The translations under genes and the position numbers were made by a program. From the NCBI GenBank assembly GCA_028865725.1, contig JAGWJP010000002.1, positions 40,050 to 104,049 on the forward strand: a stretch of DNA of 64,000 nucleotides, given 5' to 3'. Source of the stretch: Patescibacteria group bacterium. GTDB taxonomy: Bacteria > Patescibacteriota > Minisyncoccia > UBA6257 > JACRHW01. Below the pieces are notes generated by a model. The model was not told the origin of the DNA, did not search any database, and worked only from the letters and a program-made list of their open reading frames with translations. This document shows, piece by piece, positions 10,691 to 57,858 of the stretch (its first letter is position 1; each line of letters opens with the position of its first letter).

Positions 10691-10863
10691 CATTTTTCTA
10701 CAGTGACACCGCGTATGCCATGCATCATGCATCATACTATTTAATTATTTATTCCTTATTTATTGCCCTATCGACCTTTCAATATTTTTTATAGCTGATA
10801 TCTGGCATCCCGGTAGAGAATACTTTTATACAAACAACCTGATATACAATACAAAATACTTGG

Positions 10864-11763
10864 TTACTCATGTTCAGCCACTATCTTCTCCTGCAACGCG
10901 CGTAGTTCCGCAAGCGCCTGCGTTGCTTGTTCTTTATTCGGAGGTTTTCCATGCCACGCAAAATCATTTTCCATAAATGAGACTCCCTTTCCGGGAATAG
11001 TGTGCGCAATAATCATTGTAGGTTTTTCAAAAATAGCTTTTGCCTCCGCAAGCGCACCAATAATATGAAAAAAATTATGCCCGTCAATCTCAATCACATG
11101 CCAATTAAACGACTCGTATTTCTTTCGCAATGGTTCGAGTGGCATCACATCCTCGGTAAATCCATCGATTTGAATATTGTTCCTATCCAATACTGCGGTA
11201 AGGTTGTGCAATTTATGTTTGCCCGCGAACATTAAGGCTTCCCACGTATTTCCTGCATCATGCTCTCCGTCTGACATAAGACAAAATATGCGATGCTTTT
11301 TGTGATCAAGTCGCGCAGCAAGCGCCATCCCAACCGCTTGAGATAATCCTGATCCCAGGGGACCGGAAGTACTCTCAAGTCCGGGCAATATCGTACGATG
11401 CGGATGCCCCTGAAGCCGACTTCCCACCTTGCGAAGCGTACCCAGTTCCCACTTTTCAAAATACCCTGCCTTTGAGAGTGTCGCGTAGAGAATAGGACAA
11501 ATATGGCCATTCGAGAGCACAAGACGATCACGGTTAGGATCATTGGGATTATTCGGATCATGGTGCATGACATGAAAATAAAGAGCGGTAAAAATATCCG
11601 CCATACCGAGAGGTCCCGCACTATGTCCCGATCCTGCTTCCACAAGCATTTCTATCACATCTTGTCGTAGCTCATTTGCAATGTTCTCGAGTTTATGAAG
11701 CGTAGAGTCGCTCAATGATGTCATAATTGAATTAACTGTGTAATAACTCTTGATATGCCTCAC
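10864..11763 (-). CDS. transketolase, N-terminal (TPP-binding) subunit
   Basis: 299 aa; GHSAGPLGMADI and GDGE TPP-binding motifs. Confidence 0.85.
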   Translation of the reverse strand: MRHIKSYYTVNSIMTSLSDSTLHKLENIANELRQDVIEMLVEAGSGHSAGPLGMADIFTALYFHVMHHDPNNPNDPNRDRLVLSNGHICPILYATLSKAGYFEKWELGTLRKVGSRLQGHPHRTILPGLESTSGPLGSGLSQAVGMALAARLDHKKHRIFCLMSDGEHDAGNTWEALMFAGKHKLHNLTAVLDRNNIQIDGFTEDVMPLEPLRKKYESFNWHVIEIDGHNFFHIIGALAEAKAIFEKPTMIIAHTIPGKGVSFMENDFAWHGKPPNKEQATQALAELRALQEKIVAEHE

Positions 11764-43627: not shown

Positions 43628-44242
43628 TTAATGAGATAAGGTATGTTCCATGGCAGCCGCCACAGTCGCCTCAAGCGTGTTATGAATCTGAAAAGAACAA
43701 CGTAGTTGGGTATCGAAATTGAGTTGAATCTGTTTCAGGCCTGGAAATTCTGCTTCTGCGCCAACCACCATCTTAAGTTTTGGGTTGTACGCCATATGCG
43801 CGCGCCATTCGCCAAGCTCTCCTCGCGTTTCTCGGGCATACGGCCCATCATTAGAATCACGTGGATGTTCCCTACTTTCGCAAGGAAGCCAGAACAAAAT
43901 GCATCCCATCTGCGCAGCCATAGAAAGATAATAACGTTCCCATAACGTCTGATGCTGAAACGTACGCGCAAGATCGTGACTTTCCACTTCATACTGACGT
44001 AGAGAGTGGTCTCTAGGATAATGAGAAGGAATTGCCACACAGCAATAACGAAACTGCGAAGAAAGCGGCAAATAACGCTCCATAATCAAGTTCACACATT
44101 GCATTTGCCAATCGCCCCCACCCCGTACCGGACCGGCCAAAAAAATCAAGATATCCCTATCAGGCGACATACCTCCAGGCATATAAAACGTATTGGGTAA
44201 AATGACCCTTGGGGTACGCCTTGACAGTTCAAAATTCGTCAT
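43628..44242 (-). CDS. hypothetical protein, possibly nucleoside 2-deoxyribosyltransferase-like Rossmann fold
   Basis: ILIFLAGPVRGGGDWQ resembles the P-loop-like motif of the DRTase/LOG-type fold; weak. Confidence 0.35.
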   Translation of the reverse strand: MTNFELSRRTPRVILPNTFYMPGGMSPDRDILIFLAGPVRGGGDWQMQCVNLIMERYLPLSSQFRYCCVAIPSHYPRDHSLRQYEVESHDLARTFQHQTLWERYYLSMAAQMGCILFWLPCESREHPRDSNDGPYARETRGELGEWRAHMAYNPKLKMVVGAEAEFPGLKQIQLNFDTQLRCSFQIHNTLEATVAAAMEHTLSH

Positions 44243-44373
44243 ACTATTCTCCTTCAGTTTTCTATGAACCACTTGCAGTATATCACGGATATATTATTGT
44301 GTAAACTTGCTATAATCTATATTATGTGATACAGTAATTTCCAACTACGCACGCAGAAAGGATTTCGTAGAGA

Positions 44374-44763
44374 ATGAATATAAAAAATGTGACAGAGCAA
44401 AAACTTGCCCTCGATCTTTGCAAAACACGCTCGACATGTCGCAGGGCACGCATGGCAGCAGTCTTAAGTGACAAGCAGGGCATTTTTGCATGGGGATGGA
44501 ACCATATGCTCTCTACTACAAAAACAGCGGGTAGCGGTATGCATGCTGAACACCATGCGATACGTCGGGCCAATAGGAACCGCCTTCGCGGTGCAACGCT
44601 CACTGTCGCAGGAATATCATCAGGAAATAATAAAAATCCCCTTCTCTCAAAACCTTGCGAGCACTGTCTTGCGCTTGCAATGAAATATGGCATAAAAAGA
44701 ATCGTCTATCTCACAAAAGATGGGACCTGGGCGGCACTCATACTTACCTATCAGGAAGTTTAA
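44374..44763 (+). CDS. CMP/dCMP (cytidine) deaminase-family zinc enzyme
   Basis: HAEHHAI (H[AC]E) and PCEHC (PCxxC) zinc-binding signature. Confidence 0.75.
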   Translation: MNIKNVTEQKLALDLCKTRSTCRRARMAAVLSDKQGIFAWGWNHMLSTTKTAGSGMHAEHHAIRRANRNRLRGATLTVAGISSGNNKNPLLSKPCEHCLALAMKYGIKRIVYLTKDGTWAALILTYQEV

Positions 44764-45022: not shown

Positions 45023-47419
45023 TCATAAATTTTCAAGCGCCTTACGCGTCAAAGGACCCACCATGCCAATGGGTGCAATACCGTGTTCAGTTTGAAACGT
45101 GCGGACGCCTGCGGCAGTAAGCGGCCCGTAATATCCGGTGATAGGGCCCGTATAATAGCCGCCTCGAGTAAGGTATATTTGAAGATTCGTTACCTCATCT
45201 CCCCGCGAACCCATACTTATATTCTGAGAGAGTGATAACATCTTCGTCTGCGACAAAAGCGAAGAGATATCATCGTGTGAAATGAACGTATTCAGCACAC
45301 CGCGCGTCAAAGGACCCACTATGCCAACGGGTGCAATACCGTGTTCGGCTTGAAACGCACGGACGCCTGCGGCGGTAAGCGGCCCGTAATATCCGGTGAT
45401 AGGGCCCGTATACACATGGAGATGAGCGAGGAGAGTTTGGAGTACAACCACACTATCACTCTTAGCGCCCTGAGAAAGAAACGTGGTAAAAATGAGATTC
45501 CGCGTAGATGAAGAGACTGATTCATTCGGTAACACTACCTCCGGAGTCGCGGTTTTTACTACAGGCTCTTCAGTTGATTCAGGAAGTGAAACAGGAGACT
45601 CCACTATCGTTTTTGAAATCGGTAGGGTGGTAGAAGAGGCAGAAGATGAAGAGACTGATTCATTAGTATTTTCTACGCCGGAAAAAGAACTGCCTCCTCC
45701 GACAAAATGAACAAATGTAACCTTGCTTTGATCCGTTGTTGCAGAAACTTCGGTGCCTCTGTTTCCTACGGAATCTTGAAAATCAATCGTAAAAGGGATC
45801 TGACCCGTGGCATCGCTTGAAACAAGAGTATACGATGTTGTCCATGTATTTCCTGTAGTATTGGTAGAAGCTACACTATGCCCCAGAAGCGTTACAGTAG
45901 GCGTTGAGATAGATTCGCTTGCAGTAAACGTAAGCGTCACGGAGTCACCCGCCACAGCATGGCTCGGAATAGTATTATTTGATCCAATGGAAACCCCTGA
46001 AAGCAAAGGAGCCTGACCGTCTGAAAGTGCAATCGACTGATCGTGGGGAACAAGAACATTCGTCACCCCGTTTGCGTCGGTAACCGCGTTTTCATCGGCA
46101 TAAAGACCCAGCGCAGCTGTGGTCGATGCAGAGGTATTACTCCATGGAGAACCTGAAAATGTAAGCTCAACCTTCCAAGGAGATGAGGAATTTATGATGG
46201 TGGCGCTTGATGCCGTAAGCGGCGAGACGCCTCCACCGTTTTGATCTACGTGCCAATCAGCTGCCGATATCGCAGAAAGCGTAGAACTTGTATCCGTAAG
46301 GTTAACAAGGAGTGTTGAGGGAGACGTAATGGAAGCAGAATCTACAGTAATAATGGGAGAAAAAATTTGAACGCGCTGATTGCTAAAATCAACCACATAT
46401 GCAAGCGAAGAGCTTGAAAATGCGAGAGCAACAGAACCGCTAAACTGACCATCTCCGGAGCCAGACGATCCGAATGTGGAGAGATAATTTCCCGCGCTGT
46501 CGAACACTTCGATGCGATTGTTGCTGTAATCTGAGACATAAACACCAGAAGAGCTCGAAATCGCAACTCCGAACGGTAATGCAAATTGACCGTTTCCGCT
46601 TCCTGAAATCCCTTGTTGGCATTGCGAAGTACAAACTTCAAACGAAGATGCACCGTCCTTTACCCCCCACCCAAAGGTAGATATGAAATTTCCCGCGCTG
46701 TCGAACACTTCGATGCGATGGTTACTCTCATCAGCAACATAGACATCTGATGAACTCGAAAGAGCAATACCCGTAGGACTTTGTAACTCTCCCGTGCTTG
46801 TTCCTAGCGTTCCAAATTGAGAGAGATAATTTCCCGCGCTGTCGAACACTTCGATGCGATTATTAAAATGATCAGAAACAAATAGTTGCGAGGAACTTGA
46901 AAGAGCAATATTTGCCGGACGGCTTAGTTGTCCGTTTCCAGACCCTGCAATGCCTGCTTGACAGTTTGACGTACAGATTTCAAATGTCGAAGATCCATTG
47001 CTCACGCCCCACCCGAACGTAGAAATAAAGTTACCTGCGCTATCGAACACGTCGATGCGATTGTTATTGTAATCCACAACATACATATCGGAAGAACTTG
47101 AAAAAGCAATACCTGTCGGAGAATTCATCTGACCGGCACCTGAGCCCAAAGATCCAAATTGGGAGAGATAATTTCCCGCGCTGTCGAACACTTCGATGCG
47201 ATTGTTGACGTTGTCCGCAACGTACACTTGAGAAGAGGTGGAAATGGCAATCTCACGCGGACCGCTAAACTGGCCGCTTCCGGATCCGGATGAGCCAAAT
47301 TTTGAGAAATAGGTATAAGAACTCGCCGCATGTACAGTATCCGCGATACCAAAAGTGCCCACCATGCCCATGGCAACAAAAAAAATCAACAGTATGATAC
47401 GACGCGCACGAAAATACAT
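45023..47419 (-). CDS. secreted NHL-repeat beta-propeller protein with Ser/Thr-rich stalk and two C-terminal peptidoglycan-binding domains
   Basis: Signal peptide; six NHL repeats (NNRIEVFDSAGNYLSQFG); two PG_binding_1-like copies (GPITGYYGPLTAAGVRAFQAEHGIAPVGIVGPLTR). Confidence 0.75.
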   Translation of the reverse strand: MYFRARRIILLIFFVAMGMVGTFGIADTVHAASSYTYFSKFGSSGSGSGQFSGPREIAISTSSQVYVADNVNNRIEVFDSAGNYLSQFGSLGSGAGQMNSPTGIAFSSSSDMYVVDYNNNRIDVFDSAGNFISTFGWGVSNGSSTFEICTSNCQAGIAGSGNGQLSRPANIALSSSSQLFVSDHFNNRIEVFDSAGNYLSQFGTLGTSTGELQSPTGIALSSSSDVYVADESNHRIEVFDSAGNFISTFGWGVKDGASSFEVCTSQCQQGISGSGNGQFALPFGVAISSSSGVYVSDYSNNRIEVFDSAGNYLSTFGSSGSGDGQFSGSVALAFSSSSLAYVVDFSNQRVQIFSPIITVDSASITSPSTLLVNLTDTSSTLSAISAADWHVDQNGGGVSPLTASSATIINSSSPWKVELTFSGSPWSNTSASTTAALGLYADENAVTDANGVTNVLVPHDQSIALSDGQAPLLSGVSIGSNNTIPSHAVAGDSVTLTFTASESISTPTVTLLGHSVASTNTTGNTWTTSYTLVSSDATGQIPFTIDFQDSVGNRGTEVSATTDQSKVTFVHFVGGGSSFSGVENTNESVSSSSASSTTLPISKTIVESPVSLPESTEEPVVKTATPEVVLPNESVSSSTRNLIFTTFLSQGAKSDSVVVLQTLLAHLHVYTGPITGYYGPLTAAGVRAFQAEHGIAPVGIVGPLTRGVLNTFISHDDISSLLSQTKMLSLSQNISMGSRGDEVTNLQIYLTRGGYYTGPITGYYGPLTAAGVRTFQTEHGIAPIGMVGPLTRKALENL

Positions 47420-47574: not shown

Positions 47575-48462
47575 TTACGACTCCTCACTTCTCCATCGCG
47601 CAAAAATACCGCAGGGCAATAATCGTTTTCCTATAGATTCTCTAATCGTAAGCTCTCCCGACTCCACCTTACCGCCATAACGATACACCACGCTCTCCAC
47701 ATTATAGCGATATGCCAATTGTGAGTATCCTGCCGCATAACCGTTTACAAGGAAAAAAAGCGGTTGAGGAGAGAGGATGGATTTGCATGCATCCACTAAT
47801 ACCGTAAAATCATTTTCGATATGCCAGAGCGTACCGTTCGGTCCGCGTCCAAACGCAGGAGGATCAAGGATAATGCCATCGTAGGTATGTCCTCTCTTGA
47901 TCTCTCGTTTCACAAATGCGCGTGCGTCATCCAGAATCCAACGAATCGGCTTTTCATAAAAACCCGAAAGCCTTGCATTATCACGCGCCCAAGTAAGAGC
48001 CGATTTTGAGGCATCCACATGGCACACCTCTGCCCCTTCTGCGGCTGCTGCAAGCGAAGCGCCGCCCGTATAACCGAACAAATTTAATACAGAAACAGAC
48101 CTTTCTGCATTACGAATCGTCTCACGCACCCACTGCCAATTAGGTATCTGTTCAGGAAACACGCCCGTATGCTTAAAGGCGGTCGGACGAATATGAAAAT
48201 GAAGACCATCAAATGCAATACTCCATGTTTCGGGCACAGATGCCGTGCCATTCCATTTTCCGTCCTTTCCTTCACGAACAAACTGTGCATGCGCCGCGTC
48301 CCACAACGCAGGATCTGTTTTATGCCATAACGCCTGCGGATCCGGGCGCCGCAGGATCACGGTGCCATACCGCTCAAGCTTTTCGCCGTCTCCGCTATCC
48401 ATCAATTCATAATCCGCCGATGGCTCGGTAACCGTAATACATGATAGTGATACATCATTCAT
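47575..48462 (-). CDS. class I SAM-dependent rRNA methyltransferase (RlmI/RlmK-like, PUA-less short form)
   Basis: LNLFGYTGGASLAAAAEGAEVCHVDAS SAM-binding motif and RlmI-like C-terminal catalytic region. Confidence 0.65.
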   Translation of the reverse strand: MNDVSLSCITVTEPSADYELMDSGDGEKLERYGTVILRRPDPQALWHKTDPALWDAAHAQFVREGKDGKWNGTASVPETWSIAFDGLHFHIRPTAFKHTGVFPEQIPNWQWVRETIRNAERSVSVLNLFGYTGGASLAAAAEGAEVCHVDASKSALTWARDNARLSGFYEKPIRWILDDARAFVKREIKRGHTYDGIILDPPAFGRGPNGTLWHIENDFTVLVDACKSILSPQPLFFLVNGYAAGYSQLAYRYNVESVVYRYGGKVESGELTIRESIGKRLLPCGIFARWRSEES

Positions 48463-48514
48463 AGTTCTTACCCTATCAAAAAAATATGATTTTGACCACT
48501 TAAAAGTAACGACA

Positions 48515-49117
48515 TTGTCACACAAAAAAAATAATGCGAGAATGAGTGATAACCAACGTACGCAATATCTTATGGAAGAACACTACACTCCCGCACATCA
48601 TAAGAATAACCCTGAGAAATCTGAAGCATCAACAAATCCTTTTGAATTAGGACCCGATCCCGAGGGTGAGTTAAAAGCCTTTATACGATACCTTGCGATG
48701 GCAAAGGAAGGCGTTAGTTACTTTATTTGCACACCAGAGGATCGAGAAAAAACTGTAGAACAAATAAAAAAAGAGCTTGAGCACATACGCGGTATCAACG
48801 AAATAAATATCACTATACCTCCTGATACGGATTTTAACGCCTTTCAGCCCCTACAACTCTATTTTGAAATTGAGGAATTAAAACAAAAAGGCGCGATTCA
48901 GAATAATAATATTATTTTTATCTACGGAATTGAAAACGTACAAAAAGACCTGCGCACATTTGTGGGCTTAAATCATTCACGCAATTCAATAATTCCGCGA
49001 AATGGGCCTATTGTATTTTGGCTTCCTAGTCCCAATCTCCTTCGTATATTCTCTCAAAATGCACCCGACTTCTTTTCCGCACGATCGGGAGTCTATATCT
49101 ATTCTTCCGAGGATTAA
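48515..49117 (+). CDS. hypothetical protein (200 aa)
   Basis: Uninterrupted ORF; no family recognised. Confidence 0.4.
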   Translation: MSHKKNNARMSDNQRTQYLMEEHYTPAHHKNNPEKSEASTNPFELGPDPEGELKAFIRYLAMAKEGVSYFICTPEDREKTVEQIKKELEHIRGINEINITIPPDTDFNAFQPLQLYFEIEELKQKGAIQNNNIIFIYGIENVQKDLRTFVGLNHSRNSIIPRNGPIVFWLPSPNLLRIFSQNAPDFFSARSGVYIYSSED

Positions 49118-49236
49118 AAACACGAGACAATTACACACAAAACCATACGTCTCAACAAGAAAAAAATCCCTCTTTTGACTTTCTGTGCACGTTTTGGTTT
49201 GATAACGATAGTTCATTTGCATGAGGTGAAAAATCA

Positions 49237-49806
49237 ATGGCGCTGCCGCCACGCATACCAGTTGATACTTTACTACACTTAATCGATGAACCTTATCAAT
49301 CTGCGTGCCGAACAATTCTTCAGGAACATCGGGTCCTCTTCCAGACTGTCCAAGGTTCCACCCATAATCACCAAGCATGGCCCGGCGGATACTACGACCA
49401 CGTTCAAGAAGTGATGAATTTTGCGCCTCATCTCTATGCCATCGCGAGCAGATGGTTTGACACGCTTCCCTTCTCCTTGTCCGATGCGCTCCTCATCTTA
49501 TTCCTCCACGACATTGAAAAACCGTGGAAGTATGAATGGGGGCCTGATGGCCATCTTCAAGAAATCGAAGCATTGCGATCAAAAGACGCACAGCATGAGT
49601 TTCGTGCACGTAAACTCCATGAGTATGGCATCGTACTCACTGCTCCACAAGCGAACGCCATGAGATATGTAGAAGGAGAACTCGCAGAATATTCGAATAA
49701 GCGACGCGTAATGAACGAACTAGCCGCGTTCTGTCACTGCTGCGACACGATAAGCGCACGCATCGGTTATAATCTCCCTCAAGCAGAAGACCGCCTCCGT
49801 GGATAA
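49237..49806 (+). CDS. HD-domain phosphohydrolase-like protein
   Basis: H...HD pattern (THNHQAW...LFLHDIEKP) typical of HD metal-dependent phosphohydrolases. Confidence 0.5.
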   Translation: MALPPRIPVDTLLHLIDEPYQSACRTILQEHRVLFQTVQGSTHNHQAWPGGYYDHVQEVMNFAPHLYAIASRWFDTLPFSLSDALLILFLHDIEKPWKYEWGPDGHLQEIEALRSKDAQHEFRARKLHEYGIVLTAPQANAMRYVEGELAEYSNKRRVMNELAAFCHCCDTISARIGYNLPQAEDRLRG

Positions 49807-49820
49807 TCCCCCAAAAAACA

Positions 49821-49850
49821 AACCGGCTCAATGTGGCCGGCTTTTTGTTT
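49821..49850. terminator. bidirectional hairpin terminator between convergent genes
   Basis: ccggc-tcaatgtg-gccgg followed by ctttttg; A-run upstream. Confidence 0.55.
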
Positions 49851-50710
49851 TATATTTCTTTTCGAAGCGCATCTACAAAACGAGTATTATCATGAGGAAT
49901 AGTTAACACACGGCGTATAAGATCGTTGCATTTCACGATTTTTCCTGAACACTGTTCTATCTCTTCAAATAATGCAATCGTGTGTGCGATGCAAAACCGT
50001 GAAAACTCGGCTTCTCTCCTTTGAGGAATAGACGCCCACTCACGCGGATTTCCAAAAGGAAGTAGATAAGGCACGCCGATATTATTGCTTCCCACAAGCG
50101 ATCTTCCCGCATAAGGGACCCCGGGATAAAAATCGCGTTCACACACCTCATCGATCACCTCGTCGTAGAGTCGCACGCATTCCACTTCGCAGCCCAGTGC
50201 GATAATCTTTTCCACGCCTTTACGAATCCCTATACCCGTACACACTTTTGGAACGTTTATTCCCATTTGCTGCATTACTGTTATAAGGCGACTCATCATC
50301 ACCCCGGAAAAGATGACATCGTCAACAAGCACTACCTCGCAAAGACCCGCAGAAACTAACTCATGCATTTGGGTACGAAGAGACGGGAAACCGGTCCTTC
50401 TTCTCAGTCCGCAATTAATCCCTTCTCTCGTAACACAACGCGTAATCTCAAGCGTGTGGTCGGTGTGAGTATATATCTTCTCGAGCGACACCGGCGGAAG
50501 ACCTGCATGCAGAATACATTCGCGCATACCCTCGCGCAATTCATTCTCTTCTACAAAATCAAAATAGGGAAACATGGATCTCATCTCATCGCAAAACACC
50601 ATTCTCATCGATCGAAAGAAATTCTGATTTGGAAGAATAAATCCCAGCTCCCTAACCCATTGCTGCATAAGAATATAAATATCGGCAGACACCACATATG
50701 GAATTGCCAT
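49850..50710 (-). CDS. phosphoribosyltransferase (type I PRTase)-domain protein with extra N-terminal region
   Basis: EVVLVDDVIFSGVMMSR matches the PRPP-binding motif of type I PRTases. Start taken at MAIPYVV. Confidence 0.5.
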   Translation of the reverse strand: MAIPYVVSADIYILMQQWVRELGFILPNQNFFRSMRMVFCDEMRSMFPYFDFVEENELREGMRECILHAGLPPVSLEKIYTHTDHTLEITRCVTREGINCGLRRRTGFPSLRTQMHELVSAGLCEVVLVDDVIFSGVMMSRLITVMQQMGINVPKVCTGIGIRKGVEKIIALGCEVECVRLYDEVIDEVCERDFYPGVPYAGRSLVGSNNIGVPYLLPFGNPREWASIPQRREAEFSRFCIAHTIALFEEIEQCSGKIVKCNDLIRRVLTIPHDNTRFVDALRKEI

Positions 50711-50814
50711 TAGCACTTCTCCTCCTTTTTCAATGAACTTCCTCCCAAAAAAGAAAAACCCTTTTGGAAGGGGTTCGGTGTCATTCTTCGTGTTAATCAC
50801 AACCAACCTCTTCC

Positions 50815-51369
50815 TCAAAGAGTTCGATTATGATATTTTTTCCCAAGAATAATTGCGCGACGTGCTGCCTCATGCGGCGTAGCAACTTCTTCAATGATTA
50901 TTCGTTTTCGCCCGTCAAGATATTCGCCCGCAAGACGATCGCTCCATCCGCCTGTTCCTTTCATAACCACCACAGGAATGTTTGCTTGATAAGCAATCGC
51001 TATCTCAGTAAGAGTTCCTGAGCCACCGCTTACCGCGATCACCGCATCGCAACTTAATACCAGCGCCATCTCGCGCCCGCCCCCGCGCTCGAGGCCTGTG
51101 GCAATTACCACATCAACCTGTTTTTCTATTATCGCCAATCCCTTCCCATAGGTAATTCCGACAGTAAGCCCACCCCCGCGTTTCGCCCCGCGACAAGCTG
51201 CGGTAGAGAGTGAATCAAAATCTTTTTCTGCGCCAAACAAAAGCACGGCCCCCTTTTTCGCGACCTCATACCCGATCTCCTCCGCGATTCTTTCAATATC
51301 CTTGGAATACTTAAGATCGGCTGCGGAGCCCATAACGCCAATTTGTAGTTTTCTTTTTTCTGTTCTCAT
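50815..51369 (-). CDS. TIGR00725-type SLOG/LOG-like Rossmann-fold protein
   Basis: IGVMGSA...GAEKD...GGSGTLTEIA pattern of the DprA/LOG/SLOG superfamily. Confidence 0.6.
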   Translation of the reverse strand: MRTEKRKLQIGVMGSAADLKYSKDIERIAEEIGYEVAKKGAVLLFGAEKDFDSLSTAACRGAKRGGGLTVGITYGKGLAIIEKQVDVVIATGLERGGGREMALVLSCDAVIAVSGGSGTLTEIAIAYQANIPVVVMKGTGGWSDRLAGEYLDGRKRIIIEEVATPHEAARRAIILGKKYHNRTL

Positions 51370-51411
51370 AATATGGGTATTTTATCGAGCTCACGTATTT
51401 TGTGTAAAAAA

Positions 51412-51711
51412 TTAGCGGGTTTTGTTTAACATCCTTCTGTATCCCCCTGCCCCTTTCTTCATCCACGCGTGAATCCGAGCGATAGTGGTTGAGCTCATTT
51501 TTGTTTCTTCTTCTATAGATTTATAGGAATCCCCTACAGCAAGCATACGCACCACCTTCCACCTTCGCCCAAACTCCTCAATCTCTTTCTCAGTCAACAA
51601 ATCACGAAAAAAAATGCGGGCCTCATTGATGTCTTTTAACATAAGAACCGCGGCAAATAGTGCACGAACGTCCTTAGTAAACCAATCTTGTTTTTCCTGT
51701 ATCTTTTTCAT
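51412..51711 (-). CDS. YerC/YecD-family (TrpR-like) small DNA-binding protein
   Basis: 99 aa; LLTEKEIEEFGRRWKVVRML...SYKSIEEETKMSSTTIARI resembles the TrpR-like YerC family. Confidence 0.65.
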   Translation of the reverse strand: MKKIQEKQDWFTKDVRALFAAVLMLKDINEARIFFRDLLTEKEIEEFGRRWKVVRMLAVGDSYKSIEEETKMSSTTIARIHAWMKKGAGGYRRMLNKTR

Positions 51712-51812
51712 ATCACTTTAGTATACTAAAGTGATTTTCAAAAGTCAAGTACCCAAAAAAATTTAATAAAAAACCTCGCGCATAGAGCCGAGGCCTCTTT
51801 TACCTTTATCTT

Positions 51813-52184
51813 TTACATCGTAGTATGCACACCCCTAGAATCACGGAAACGTGAAAATATCACAGACTCTCGCACCACACACTGAATAATATAGTCCCTC
51901 TCAAGAATTGTATTCGAAGTTAATGCGTCCACAATCGCTTCAGCAATACCTGGATGAAGTGGCCCATACCCCTGAGTGACATCAATGCTGACAATAAGCG
52001 GCATAGGTTCCGATCTGTAACGGTAGGCACGGAAATGCTCGCCTTCTCTCTCAAAACTTACTGTCAAGTCTGACTCCTCAATGAAAAAAACTTCTTTTAA
52101 ATGTGCAAAAATAGCCTCTCGAATCTTCCATTCTTCCACACCTCCATGCATTCCGTGCAAAGAAACAATAACCTGCGGCATCAT
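51813..52184 (-). CDS. hypothetical protein, possibly tandem tautomerase (4-OT)-like halves
   Basis: Two ~60-aa halves, each beginning MP(Q/L)(V/I)IVS, as in the Pro-1 tautomerase superfamily; weak. Confidence 0.3.
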   Translation of the reverse strand: MMPQVIVSLHGMHGGVEEWKIREAIFAHLKEVFFIEESDLTVSFEREGEHFRAYRYRSEPMPLIVSIDVTQGYGPLHPGIAEAIVDALTSNTILERDYIIQCVVRESVIFSRFRDSRGVHTTM

Positions 52185-52322
52185 ATGATCCCCTTTCTTC
52201 ATTACGATCTAAATGGTATTATACCACATTCTAATACTATTTATCAATAGTGCATCTAATATCCTCCTTGCGCTATACTAAGAATACATAATGAGTGCAA
52301 CAATTTATCATATTAATATTAT

Positions 52323-53039
52323 ATGACTGAAGAACAACGAAAAAAATTAAATGTACCGGCCTCCAAACTTCCCGTATTTGAAGAACCGACTGATTTTCGG
52401 GCATCACTTCATTGGAAGGTTTTTCGCATTATGGCGGAGATGGTGGACGGGTGGCAATTTATCGCAGATTTCAAAAAGACCGTAACCTTTTTTGGTTCGG
52501 CGCGTTTTCCTGAGAACAACAAATGGTATAAAACCGCGGAACAACTCGGGAAACTTCTTGCGGAACACGGGTTTGGCGTAATCACAGGAGGAGGCCCGGG
52601 TATCATGGAGGGTGGAAATCGCGGTGCACACGAAGCGGGCGGCACCTCGGTGGGGCTTAACATCAAACTTCCTGCAGAACAACGTATCAACCCTTACGTA
52701 AACGCAAGCATCGCATTTCATTACTTCTTCACAAGAAAAGTGATGCTCTCCTATGCTGCACAAGCGTACGTCTACTTTCCCGGAGGATTTGGTACCCTTG
52801 ATGAGTTCTTTGAGCTTGTAACCCTCATTCAAACCAAAAAGATCGCGACTCATATCCCCGTAATCCTGTTGGGTCGAGAATACTGGGGGCCGCTCAATGA
52901 ATGGATTCGCACGCAAGTATACGGCACGTTCCATGCAATTGATGAAGAAGACATGAATATTTATCAAATTGTGGATACTTCCGAAGAGGCGCTCGAGATA
53001 ATTCTTAAAACCCCCGAACGAAAGGATCTCGGATACTAA
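52323..53039 (+). CDS. LOG-family protein (nucleotide 5'-monophosphate phosphoribohydrolase, TIGR00730)
   Basis: VTFFGSAR, GGGPGIMEG and PGGFGTLDE motifs. Confidence 0.8.
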   Translation: MTEEQRKKLNVPASKLPVFEEPTDFRASLHWKVFRIMAEMVDGWQFIADFKKTVTFFGSARFPENNKWYKTAEQLGKLLAEHGFGVITGGGPGIMEGGNRGAHEAGGTSVGLNIKLPAEQRINPYVNASIAFHYFFTRKVMLSYAAQAYVYFPGGFGTLDEFFELVTLIQTKKIATHIPVILLGREYWGPLNEWIRTQVYGTFHAIDEEDMNIYQIVDTSEEALEIILKTPERKDLGY

Positions 53040-53198: not shown

Positions 53199-55187
53199 AT
53201 GAACTATCTCCCTCTCGGGGTATCCGCTCTAGGAATCCTCTATAGCGTGTACCTTATCCAGTCCGTGCTCTCGCTCCCTGCGGGAGACGAAAAAATGAAA
53301 CAAATATCGCATGCGGTTCAAGAAGGATCAGAAGCCTATCTTGCGCGGCAAAACAAGGCAGTGTTTGTAGTAGCGGTCGTCATTGCAATCGTACTCTGGT
53401 TTACCCTTGGGACACTCACTACTCTTGGATTTATTGTAGGTGCATTTCTTTCTGGTCTTGCAGGATACCTTGGAATGAACGTTGCCGTCCGGGCAAACGC
53501 GCGCACCACCGAAGCCGCAAAACAAGGCATGCAGCGTGCACTTGATGTGGCATTCAAAGGAGGCGCAGTCACGGGAGTCCTCGTAGTCTCTCTCGGTCTT
53601 CTCGCTGTAAGCGGTTATTTTATGCTCACCCATAATGTCACAAGTCTTGTGGGGCTTGGATTTGGCGCAAGCTTGATTTCTACTTTCGCACGTCTTGGGG
53701 GCGGAATCTTTACGAAAAGCGCTGACGTGGGCGCTGATCTTGTGGGAAAAGTGGAAGCGGGTCTCCCGGAAGATGATCCTCGCAACCCTGCGGTCATCGC
53801 GGATAACGTAGGAGATAATGTGGGCGATTGCGCAGGAATGGCTGCTGATTTGTTTGAAACCTATACTGTTACCATTATTGCCGCGATGCTTCTTACCAAC
53901 CTCATCTTTCCCAACAATGCCGTACTTCTCATGCTCCCCTTCCAAATCGGCGCACTCGCAATCATCGCATCGATTTTAGGACTCTATTTTGTAAAACTTG
54001 ATCGTTCGCAGGACATTATGCGCGCCCTCTATAAAGGCCTTCTTGGAAGCGCGATCCTTGCAGGATTATTCTTTGCCGGATTTATCAAATACTTCCTCGG
54101 CGACACAGGAGGAGTGATCTCAAATCGCAATATATTCTTCGCGCTTCTTATTGGACTTCTTGTGACTGCGCTTATCGTATGGATCACCGATTACTACACT
54201 GCAAAGAAATATAAGCCAGTGCAACACGTTGCAGAAGCGGCAAACTCAGGACATGGGACAAACGTAATCATGGGTCTCGCCGTAGGACTTGAAGCGACAG
54301 TGCTCCCCGTGTTTATTATTGTGGCCGCCACGCTTCTTGCATTTCATTTTGCAGGACTCTATGGCATTGCGCTTGCCGTACTCGGCATGCTATCTCTCAC
54401 GGGAATTGTTGTTGCAATTGACTCATTCGGCCCGATCACTGATAACGCAGGCGGTATCGCTGAAATGACTCAACAACCCGAATCTGTACGAACCATTACC
54501 GATGCCCTCGACGCAGTAGGCAACACCACGAAAGCAGTGACGAAAGGGTATGCGATTGCTTCCGCAGGACTTGCCGCACTTGTTCTCTTCTCCTCATATA
54601 TCCAAGAAGTAGAAGCCACAGGCCACAAACTCGAGCTCGTACTCCAAGATCCGTGGGTGCTTGCCGGGATTCTCATAGGAGCAAGCATCCCTTATCTCTT
54701 TGCGTCGATCGCCATGCGCGCAGTGAGCAAGACAGCACAGTCAGTGGTACATGAAGTACGTACCCAGTTGAAAGAAAATCCGAATATCCTCGAAGGAAAG
54801 GAGCTTCCTGATTACGCACGCACCGTTGATATTGTCACAAAAGCAGCACTCAAAGAAATGTCACTCCCCGCTCTCATTCCTATCGCAAGTGTTATCTTGG
54901 TTGGTTTGCTTCTGGGTGCAAAGGCGGTGGGCGGTCTTCTTATCGGAACTATCATCACCGGCATCTTCCTTGCACTTTCTATGACAACGGGCGGTGCAGC
55001 ATGGGATAATGCAAAAAAATACATTGAAGAAGGCCATTTTGGAGGAAAAAAATCTCCCGCACACCAAGCTGCGGTTACCGGCGATACCGTAGGAGATGTC
55101 TACAAAGACACCGCAGGTCCCGCAATTAATCCCATGATCAAAGTAGTGAATATTGTCGCATTGCTGCTCGTCCGCTTCTTAAAGTAG
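53199..55187 (+). CDS. hppA: membrane-bound proton/sodium-translocating pyrophosphatase
   Basis: 662 aa; ~16 TM helices; conserved V-PPase motifs ([39 protein letters not shown]). Confidence 0.9.
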
Positions 55188-57471: not shown

Positions 57472-57858
57472 TTATAACAATTTAACAAGCGCCTGGGGGC
57501 TTTTTGCGACTCCGCGAAATAGGACAAGGCGCACGAGTTCATCATTCTCTGGTGAGAGGGCGTAGATAGGCTTTCCTGCCCCTACCGCAAAGCCGATCTC
57601 AAGCGTAGTGCCATTTCCACTATATCCGTTCTTATTGTAAATAAAAACAACATCCGCCATCCTTATCTTGTAAAAATGATCATGAGTAAGCCCCAATGCA
57701 ATCAGCTTCTTGTGTTCCATTGACTTCATCTCCTCCAATTCTTTCGGATTATGAAGGTGGGGCTCATATACCACAACACCGAGTTTTCGAAGATCGGCAG
57801 CAAGTTTTTGTATCTCCGACTTAAACCGCGTGCTTCCGCACAAGACAACTGAACGCAT
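57472..57858 (-). CDS. nucleoside 2-deoxyribosyltransferase-like protein
   Basis: VVLCGS...ADVVFIY...GTTLEIGFAVGAGKPIYAL pattern of the DRTase-like Rossmann fold. Confidence 0.45.
   Translation of the reverse strand: MRSVVLCGSTRFKSEIQKLAADLRKLGVVVYEPHLHNPKELEEMKSMEHKKLIALGLTHDHFYKIRMADVVFIYNKNGYSGNGTTLEIGFAVGAGKPIYALSPENDELVRLVLFRGVAKSPQALVKLL

Follow-up and report, generated by a model that had tools for sequence, protein, structure and literature searches.

The question raised by this locus is whether a run of genes with nucleotide-related domains, which looks at first sight like a single cluster, forms a working unit and, if so, what that unit is for. The stretch analysed here (the window, 64 kb in full) comes from a Patescibacteria group bacterium (GenBank assembly GCA_028865725.1, contig JAGWJP010000002.1), and a reading made from its sequence alone had proposed that eight genes at 47575-53039 might make up a co-regulated module around a YerC-type regulator, serving either plain nucleotide salvage or a nucleotide-signal-based conflict or immunity system. 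All of the genes listed in that reading were found where it had placed them, and most of its domain assignments hold. The region's one real unit is probably smaller, namely an operon of three genes, hisR(yerC)-SLOG4-PRT, at 49850-51748 on the minus strand, amid unrelated housekeeping genes (a membrane H+-translocating pyrophosphatase, HtpX, LemA, tRNAs and a P-type ATPase). It encodes a histidine repressor, a SLOG-fold protein and a divergent phosphoribosyltransferase (PRTase), and in its family it carries two control elements, an operator and an attenuator RNA, that both appear to respond to histidine. The parts of the operon are as follows.

51720..51748, minus strand: promoter-like site TTGACT-17-TATACT, from a promoter scan and reading of the sequence
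51712..51735, no strand: HisR operator, a perfect 24-bp palindrome, ATCACTTTAGTATACTAAAGTGAT, directly before the yerC ATG
49850-51711, minus strand: the three operon genes yerC, SLOG cluster-4 and PRT, which stay together across PRT loci
51412..51711, minus strand: hisR (yerC), TrpR-family histidine repressor, first gene of the operon (TIGR02531, 65.3 bits, cut-off 42.2)
50815..51369, minus strand: SLOG4, a LOG-like SLOG cluster-4 Rossmann protein (PF18306, 108.6 bits, cut-off 26.3)
50737..50873, minus strand: attenuator RNA between SLOG4 and PRT, from a covariance model and covariation
49850..50710, minus strand: PRT, a divergent type I PRTase of 286 aa, from its loop for phosphoribosyl pyrophosphate (PRPP) and its fold
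49820..49843, no strand: bidirectional terminator-like hairpin, from a promoter and terminator scan, ending the operon and the convergent HD gene

The grouping of these three genes emerges from 100 loci encoding PRT relatives (20 genomic and 80 metagenomic, 0.89 Mb in total), which were searched by phmmer with the window proteins as queries. yerC, SLOG4 and PRT travel together across the Patescibacteria, usually in the order yerC>SLOG4>PRT on one strand. SLOG4 lies near the PRT homolog in 78 of the 100 loci (71 of 82 when those with too little upstream sequence are set aside). yerC does so in 47, and in 42 of the 75 loci whose upstream sequence suffices it precedes SLOG4 and PRT on their strand. 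Near PRT, the LOG gene was found in 3 of the 100 loci, a gene for a deoxyribosyltransferase-family protein in 1, and none of the HD gene, the tautomerase-like open reading frame (ORF), the methyltransferase gene and the 200-aa ORF in any. Furthermore, the distance matrices of PRT and SLOG4 are correlated (Mantel r 0.49, the highest of 500 permutations being 0.30), and the median identity to the window copy across the loci is 70% for SLOG4 and 47% for PRT. The downstream border is the bidirectional hairpin, and in the window the yerC promoter is set off from the tautomerase-like ORF by a second terminator-like hairpin, one with a T run. Since no window genes but SLOG4 and yerC recur beside PRT, and terminator-like hairpins stand at both borders, the unit comprises three genes rather than eight. 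The proposal of a module co-regulated around the YerC-type regulator is thus borne out for yerC, the SLOG gene and PRT, and has to be given up for the other genes that were listed with them.

A related locus was seen in the genome of Micavibrio, an epibiotic predatory alphaproteobacterium (L020:6545-9667 and 10829-11692), where yerC is divergent from PRT and is accompanied by a nucleoside hydrolase and by a phosphatase of the inositol-monophosphatase (IMPase) family; a gene for a TerD-domain protein is found about 3 kb from them. This locus suggests that the module has spread laterally among bacteria that feed on other cells.

The first clue to function is the regulator. The earlier assignment of a TrpR-like YerC protein stands, with a score above the TIGR02531 cut-off, and the best match in the PDB is the HisR protein of Eubacterium eligens (3g1c, E 7.7e-13). 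YerC has been described as HisR, a histidine repressor with the consensus box cacTTTAnnnnnnTAAAgtg in Firmicutes, Actinobacteria and Synergistetes, and histidine is its co-repressor, needed for DNA binding in vitro by HisR of Ruminococcus gnavus (PMC9413887). The palindrome in the window matches the published consensus, and its 20-bp core, CACTTTAGTATACTAAAGTG at 51714-51733, is the sole such site in the window. The -10 hexamer sits at the centre of this palindrome, so that the canonical operator of HisR overlaps the -10 element of the operon promoter. The ATG lies about 9 nt downstream of the -10 hexamer, and the transcript is therefore leaderless or nearly so.

The same arrangement recurs in the family. 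hisR carries a HisR box at its 5' end in 32 of 44 loci, and the pattern ACTTTA-N6-TAAAGT accounts for 72 boxes in the 0.89 Mb of the 100 loci, versus about 7 expected for one spacing (shuffled sequences gave about 20 sites for three spacings combined, or about 7 per spacing). Of all 78 sites found with the three spacings, 58 are located either where hisR begins or some 7 nt ahead of SLOG4, and a -10-like TAnnnT usually lies inside the box. The window copy has a single HisR box and none before SLOG4. Arrays of up to five boxes, spaced about 60-80 nt apart, were seen upstream of hisR in two loci (L096:3940-4760 and L097:21-639), with two more before SLOG4, and two adjacent boxes occur in several other loci (L049, L057, L082 and L092).

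The second clue is the RNA between SLOG4 and PRT. The spacer between these genes has a median length of 165 nt and conserved hairpins, and a covariance model places the element on the coding strand ahead of PRT in about 75 of 99 loci; in the window the match spans 50737-50840 (59.1 bits, E 7e-10). The parts of the window copy are as follows.

50873-50793, minus strand: leader-frame ORF, which reads MRQHVAQLFLGKNIIIELFEEEVGCD and then a stop
near 50833-50818, minus strand: attenuator region 1
50812-50798, minus strand: attenuator region 2
near 50780-50768, minus strand: attenuator region 3
50772-50759, minus strand: terminator hairpin of the attenuator, followed by a T run, a terminator-like site from the scan

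A known riboswitch or leader in this spacer was rejected, Rfam (including His_leader) giving no match in the window at the gathering threshold and none in the window spacer or in that of locus L001 at E values up to 10. Four regions of the family element have two alternative pairings: 1:2 together with 3:4, the latter forming a terminator with a U run behind it, or 2:3. In an alignment of 37 sequences, pairing reaches 88.5% for the 1:2 plus 3:4 fold and 94.3% for the 2:3 fold, and both partners have changed in 10 and 5 pairs, respectively; the observed covariation score was reached by 0 of 500 shuffles for either fold, and both folds exceed slid controls. A short leader ORF runs in frame through the first hairpin. 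Its family form is M-x(7-12)-HHH-x-QLFLEEIGCG followed by a stop (an example is MKKIVNTIVIFVIHHHSQLFLEEIGCG, again with a stop), and it lies directly upstream of PRT whatever gene precedes. The family leader has two to four His codons in a row. The region-2 motif is present in 51 loci; in 31 of these the run of His codons is two or more long, and in 20 it is three or more. A PyrR-type protein-binding site had been considered for the CCAGAAGGG loops, and was dropped once the leader ORF with its His codons explained the element. Judged by its codons and pairings, the family element is a classical histidine leader-peptide attenuator in design.

The window copy is a reduced variant of this arrangement, with one HisR box, a weaker terminator and the His run replaced. 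All three pairings are retained in it, 2:3 with a G-C for A-U exchange, and its terminator stem has only five pairs. At the very position of the His-His-His of about 30 other loci, the leader frame has Ile-Ile-Ile (ATC ATA ATC). The SLOG4 frame extends into region 1 and reaches its stop in the loop of 1:2; a lone His codon, which arises when the bases of the Ile run are read in this frame, precedes the stop by five codons. The Ile run could be a frameshifted relic or could reflect a change in the amino acid that is sensed.

Taken together, these signals suggest a simple regulatory scheme. When histidine is plentiful, histidine-bound HisR would block the promoter, and ribosomes would run through the leader, allowing the 3:4 terminator to form ahead of PRT. 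When histidyl-tRNA is scarce, HisR would leave the operator, and ribosomes would stall on the His codons, letting regions 2 and 3 pair and transcription proceed into PRT. The regulatory logic, with the operon, and PRT above all, meant for expression when histidine is short, is well supported. The presence of two separate histidine sensors points to a histidine-starvation response of these ultra-small parasites.

What, then, would the two enzymes do under such conditions? PRT is identical (100%) to a hypothetical protein of a metagenome-assembled genome named "Patescibacteria group bacterium", and at least 748 relatives, all unnamed, are about 50% identical to it. Its start codon is the ATG at 50710 rather than the TTG at 50818. 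The PRPP-loop motif VVLVDDVIFSG is present, with D131, D132, V133 and G137 invariant in 25 sequences, and the AlphaFold2 model (predicted local distance difference test score, pLDDT, 92) has OPRT, APRT and XPRT as its best Foldseek matches, with probability 1.0, E values down to 8e-5 and template modelling (TM) scores, normalised to the target, of 0.37-0.52. The protein had been described as a type I PRTase with an extra N-terminal region. The loop and the fold agree with that description, and there are in fact conserved extensions at both ends, with the motifs CERDFYPG and GVPYLLPFG.P..WASIP and about 100 extra residues; no family threshold is passed, whether of Pribosyltran, UPRTase, PRTase-CE or the NCBIfam APRT/HPT models. 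Indeed, the window protein has no Pfam match and reaches about 19 bits in NCBIfam versus cut-offs of 146-200, and its homologs score 24-26 bits against PRTase-CE, for which the cut-off is 27, and match UPRTase and Pribosyltran weakly. Replacement of HisG by PRT was rejected as a working model, there being no other step of the his pathway linked to the operon.

SLOG4 matches PDB entries 1rcu and 2iz5 and has the conserved motifs SGGSGTLTE and GGGRE, the former of the LOG-type GGxGTxxE form. It had been labelled a TIGR00725 protein; the SLOG assignment holds at the level of the Pfam LDcluster4 family (108.6 bits), while its 92 bits against TIGR00725 fall short of the 106.9 cut-off. We know of no cluster-4 member with a proven substrate, and one member is a cofactor carrier. 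A hint of the activity comes from gene replacement. SLOG4 (72 loci) and genes resembling IU-nucleoside hydrolase or uridine phosphorylase (9 loci) never occur together beside PRT, a pattern with a Fisher p of 1.4e-6 that ignores kinship, and where the hydrolase or phosphorylase is present it is usually accompanied by a phosphatase. SLOG4 is therefore predicted to be an N-ribohydrolase acting on a ribotide, since the mutual exclusion is what would be expected if SLOG4 splits its substrate in one step to base and ribose 5-phosphate, replacing a phosphatase together with a nucleoside hydrolase or phosphorylase. The SLOG cluster-4 family thereby gains a likely activity.

Further enzymes are associated with the operon in other lineages. 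Genes inserted between SLOG4 and PRT encode HAD and Cof-type phosphatases, a protein with a ribokinase-family C-terminal domain, APH-like kinases, an aspartoacylase/AstE-like deacylase, GNAT proteins, IU-nucleoside hydrolase, uridine-phosphorylase-like proteins and radical SAM proteins. Some of these activities are also found as fusions: HAD with PRT, PRT with an APH-like kinase, a divergent PRT paralogue with a Cof-type HAD and, twice, SLOG4 with an AstE/AspA-like (N-acyl-amino-acid) deacylase. The five fusion loci are as follows.

L092:6290-7885, fusion locus
L088:3455-5134, fusion locus
L033:2-1621, fusion locus
L095:4971-6245, fusion locus
L019:2899-4242, fusion locus

A genuine histidyl-tRNA synthetase (HisRS) lies beside the operon, on either side, in 22 loci, and histidine ammonia-lyase does so in 10, next to HisRS and PRT or SLOG4 (L071, L084, L085, L099, L018, L087 and others). 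An EamA-family transporter gene follows PRT-HisRS in 4 loci (L037, L054, L069 and L092). Radical SAM proteins are encoded inside or beside the extended operon at L054:4251-5501, L099:2878-3972 and L083:4580-5674, and these neighbours give hints that the base is chemically modified in some lineages. No his genes and no homologues of hisXYZ or yuiF were seen in the operons examined, in which the targets of control are SLOG4 and PRT.

The chemistry proposed for these enzymes is a cycle in which PRT would join a nitrogenous base to PRPP and SLOG4 would hydrolyse a ribotide to base and ribose 5-phosphate, a phosphatase plus a nucleoside hydrolase or phosphorylase presumably taking over the second step in lineages that lack SLOG4. 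Such ribosylation and de-ribosylation would capture or release the base during histidine starvation. A best guess, offered tentatively, is that the base may be histidine or a close imidazole derivative, a choice favoured because of the histidine sensors and the links to HisRS, histidine ammonia-lyase and the N-acyl-amino-acid deacylase. Put as a whole, the proposal that Patescibacteria and at least one epibiotic predator (Micavibrio) possess a histidine-starvation pathway, in which a dedicated PRTase phosphoribosylates histidine or a histidine-derived imidazole and a LOG-like hydrolase, or a phosphatase with a nucleosidase, releases the base, is a possibility that we regard with some doubt. 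If true, it would mean an energy-coupled capture of host histidine, or a histidine-derived nucleoside, under the control of HisR and of a new class of histidine attenuator.

Several points weigh against this proposal. A PRTase and a ribotide hydrolase acting on the same base make a futile cycle, and the capture or release of histidine is for that reason only a rationalisation. Histidine ammonia-lyase degrades histidine and is an odd fit for a starvation regulon, and none of its 10 loci has yerC. TrpR-family paralogues can switch effector, as in the case of HisR2 and tyrosine (PMC9413887), and histidine as the ligand here is inferred only, precisely because of such changes. In the window itself, with a leader that has no His run and a terminator stem of 5 bp, histidine attenuation may not operate. 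The locus counts for linkage and exclusivity ignore shared ancestry. Finally, the closest resemblance of the accessory phosphatase, hydrolase and phosphorylase is to pyrimidine 5'-nucleotidase, RihA/RihC and uridine phosphorylase, and such pyrimidine-like enzymes fit ordinary pyrimidine salvage.

This last point makes salvage of pyrimidines or purines under a starvation signal a serious rival, and one that may possibly turn out to be correct. SLOG4 (or a nucleotidase with a nucleoside hydrolase or phosphorylase) would strip bases from scavenged nucleotides, and PRT would re-attach a standard base, probably a pyrimidine, with histidine acting as a general starvation signal; in an auxotrophic symbiont the purpose would be ordinary nucleobase or nucleotide salvage, or the harvesting of ribose. 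E. coli PpnN, a LOG-family nucleosidase that is activated by (p)ppGpp on amino-acid starvation, is a comparable case. In addition to the pyrimidine-like accessory genes, which include ribokinase-family kinases, the fold of PRT matches OPRT, APRT and XPRT, its homologues show the weak UPRTase and Pribosyltran matches already mentioned, and the window also has a gene with the cytidine-deaminase fold and a deoxyribosyltransferase-family gene. Arguing in the opposite direction, the operon carries two independent histidine-specific sensors, and its recurrent neighbours include HisRS, histidine ammonia-lyase and N-acyl-amino-acid enzymes, one of the last fused to SLOG4. Furthermore, PRT falls below every curated threshold for salvage PRTases and has large invariant extensions, and the HAD-PRT fusion would destroy the product of salvage. 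Plain nucleotide salvage, one of the two functions that the sequence-only reading had entertained, is accordingly an incomplete account, in that it leaves uncovered the two histidine-specific control elements of the family and the repeated linkage to HisRS and histidine ammonia-lyase.

A second alternative, which appears unlikely, is that PRT makes a signalling ribotide (an alarmone) that reports histidine starvation, and that SLOG4, or the phosphatase and nucleosidase, removes it. The genes for synthesis and breakdown lie together and co-evolve, PRT is under the tightest histidine control of all, and SLOG domains recur in nucleotide signalling (PMC6459960). Against this, the operon has no linked sensor or effector protein, the kinases, deacylase and GNAT proteins that accompany it look metabolic, and a type I PRTase has no precedent as an alarmone synthase.

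It is more unlikely still that PRT and SLOG4 are nucleic-acid-binding proteins, comparable to ComFC (PRTase fold) and DprA (SLOG fold) of DNA uptake, that might act on tRNA-His. SLOG-PRTase gene pairs and the precedent of ComFC and DprA are found in the literature (PMC5512222; PMC6459960), SLOG4 has a weak match to a DprA-like PHROG and is unusually conserved, and HisRS is linked to the operon. The catalytic-type motifs, however, are kept in both PRT and SLOG4, small-molecule glycosidases and phosphatases replace SLOG4 in 9 loci, and both proteins are found fused to small-molecule enzymes.

The remaining alternative, a nucleotide-signal-based conflict or anti-phage system as the sequence-only reading had also entertained, was rejected and can hardly be upheld: SLOG, PRTase and HD domains do occur in such systems (PMC5512222; PMC6459960) and PRT homologues do weakly match PRTase-CE, but PADLOC gave no match for PRT, SLOG4, HisR or the HD protein (only methyltransferase-domain and weak LOG matches), PHROGs were likewise negative, no PRT relatives were found on viral contigs (IMG/VR), phages (INPHARED) or plasmids (PLSDB), no effector is present, the flanks are housekeeping genes, sequence conservation is high, and control is exerted by an amino-acid repressor and an attenuator.

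The genes that surround the histidine-controlled operon, and that had been counted with it, are as follows.

47575..48525, minus strand: protein with a class I RNA methyltransferase domain dependent on S-adenosylmethionine (Methyltrans_SAM, 58.6 bits)
48515..49117, plus strand: 200-aa ORF with no family match
49237..49806, plus strand: YhaM-like HD-domain protein, with H45, H55, H91, D92, H167 and D170 invariant
51813..52181, minus strand: near-orphan 122-aa ORF with its own promoter-like site and terminator-like hairpin
52323..53039, plus strand: type II LOG phosphoribohydrolase homologue (TIGR00730; 3e-59 to type II LOG 5zi9)

The first of these had been called RlmI-like; the methyltransferase domain is there, and its score is far below every RlmI or RlmK equivalog cut-off. 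The 200-aa protein is as anonymous as it had seemed. The HD phosphohydrolase has no Pfam match, including to the HD family, yet the prediction is upheld by the invariant H..H..HD..H..D pattern and by an AlphaFold2 model (pLDDT 87.6) that is nearest to the HD domain of the exoribonuclease YhaM (E 1.6e-4, TMq 0.66). The protein is a stand-alone YhaM-type HD domain without the OB fold and is about 60% identical across many Patescibacteria; one homologue (L101:6001-6576) lies in a different context, among genes for ribosomal proteins and translation factors. The LOG phosphoribohydrolase is likewise confirmed, above the TIGR00730 cut-off. Directly downstream of it is the membrane H+-translocating pyrophosphatase (53199-55187, plus strand). 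Pyrophosphate is also a co-product of the PRT reaction, and no conserved linkage of the pyrophosphatase with the operon was seen.

A tandem tautomerase, which had been suggested for 51813-52202, was rejected. The ORF has no Pfam or NCBIfam match and is a near-orphan, with one weak relative (P0242) among 1.8 billion representatives, and this sole relative starts MSQVIV, so that Pro-1, the catalytic residue that defines tautomerases, is not conserved. In spite of its near-orphan status the 122-aa ORF is probably expressed, because it has its own terminator-like hairpin and a strong promoter-like site, TTGATA-18-TATAAT with an extended TG, which matches the consensus at 11 of 12 positions and is the best in the region (51813-52247, minus strand).

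Elsewhere in the window, one of two ORFs that had been considered deoxyribosyltransferase-like, 57472-57858, passes the Nuc_deoxyrib_tr threshold; the other, 43628-44272, was rejected in that role, with no Pfam, PDB or PHROG match. The cytidine deaminase that had been noted corresponds to the ORF at 44374-44763, a protein with the dCMP/cytidine-deaminase fold. The remark that several of the cluster genes are richer in G+C (GC) than the background is marginally true: the methyltransferase, HD and SLOG genes have a GC content of 0.49-0.50 and the others are at or below the mean for window genes (0.452, standard deviation 0.028, maximum 0.501). A foreign origin based on GC was rejected, the cluster genes being inside the range of the window genes. 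A 798-aa protein encoded at 45023-47419 on the minus strand, with an N-terminus that looks like a signal sequence, contains many copies of a NNRIEVFDSAGNYLSQFG repeat that resemble NHL-type beta-propeller blades, and two C-terminal repeats that resemble peptidoglycan-binding domains; it is possibly exposed on the surface of the epibiont.

A large part of bacterial diversity belongs to the Patescibacteria, and little is known of the ways in which they acquire nutrients from their hosts and sense them. The operon described here offers a concrete regulon, in which a known repressor with a recognisable operator and a new attenuator RNA, both of which would report histidine supply, converge on two conserved proteins. 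Should histidine or an imidazole derivative prove to be their substrate, the enzymes would represent new biochemistry tied to an epibiotic lifestyle. Even if they are salvage enzymes, the HisR regulon reaches the Patescibacteria, the attenuator is not in Rfam, and SLOG4 replaces a phosphatase and a nucleosidase, according to the sequence evidence. The papers searched gave no description of HisR or a histidine attenuator in Patescibacteria, of this attenuator family, of SLOG4 or PRT as targets, or of any patescibacterial regulon, and nothing pertinent on TIGR00725 or PRTase-CE. HisR regulons and histidine attenuators as such are known kinds, and what appears to be undescribed in those papers is their presence in Patescibacteria, the attenuator family itself and the nature of the targets, two uncharacterised enzyme families.

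The closest parallels to the regulator are the HisR regulons of Firmicutes, Actinobacteria and Synergistetes, which share with the operon the same regulator family, the same 20-bp box cacTTTAnnnnnnTAAAgtg and an autoregulatory site before hisR, with hisR as the first gene of a regulated operon. The known targets in those phyla are histidine biosynthesis genes or the transporters hisXYZ and yuiF, whereas here they are SLOG4 and a PRTase, and Patescibacteria are not among the phyla for which PMC9413887 reports HisR regulons. The attenuator resembles the gamma-proteobacterial his leader (Rfam His_leader) in having a short ORF with tandem His codons (3-5) and mutually exclusive 1:2, 2:3 antiterminator and 3:4 terminator pairings, the last with a U run; candidate histidine attenuators have also been found in the Bacillus cereus group, Peptostreptococcaceae and Erysipelotrichales (PMC9413887). 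The patescibacterial element differs in sequence, belongs to no Rfam family, and is intra-operonic, before a non-his gene; moreover, its leader ORF spans both arms of 1:2 and has the conserved C-terminus QLFLEEIGCG, and the window copy has Ile in place of His.

Similar mixtures of likeness and difference apply to the enzymes. With LOG/PpnN (TIGR00730) and the SLOG cluster-4/TIGR00725/MoCo-carrier group, SLOG4 shares the PF18306 fold family and the GGxGTxxE motif, and its interchange with a phosphatase plus nucleoside hydrolase is as expected of a ribotide-splitting enzyme; it differs in falling under the TIGR00725 cut-off, and control by histidine is new for the group. PRT has the core fold of the type I PRTases (OPRT, APRT, XPRT and UPRT) and of PRTase-CE, with the acidic PRPP-binding loop followed by SG. 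Its TM scores of only 0.3-0.5, its position under the Pfam and NCBIfam cut-offs and its roughly 100 extra residues, with invariant motifs that are absent from salvage PRTases, set it apart, and PRT is not on mobile elements. The nearest precedent for the combination may be the modules of a PRTase plus HAD that Anantharaman, Iyer and Aravind reportedly proposed in 2012, for Ter systems, as acting on a "nucleoside-like metabolite", a work to which PMC5512222 refers. In both cases a PRTase is linked or fused to HAD phosphatases and the accessory enzymes vary by lineage, and the TerD gene of Micavibrio lies 3 kb from its PRT locus. The patescibacterial loci differ from these modules in that they have no Ter gene, ATP-grasp or lyase component, that the glycosidase step is obligatory, and that the whole is placed under the control of histidine.

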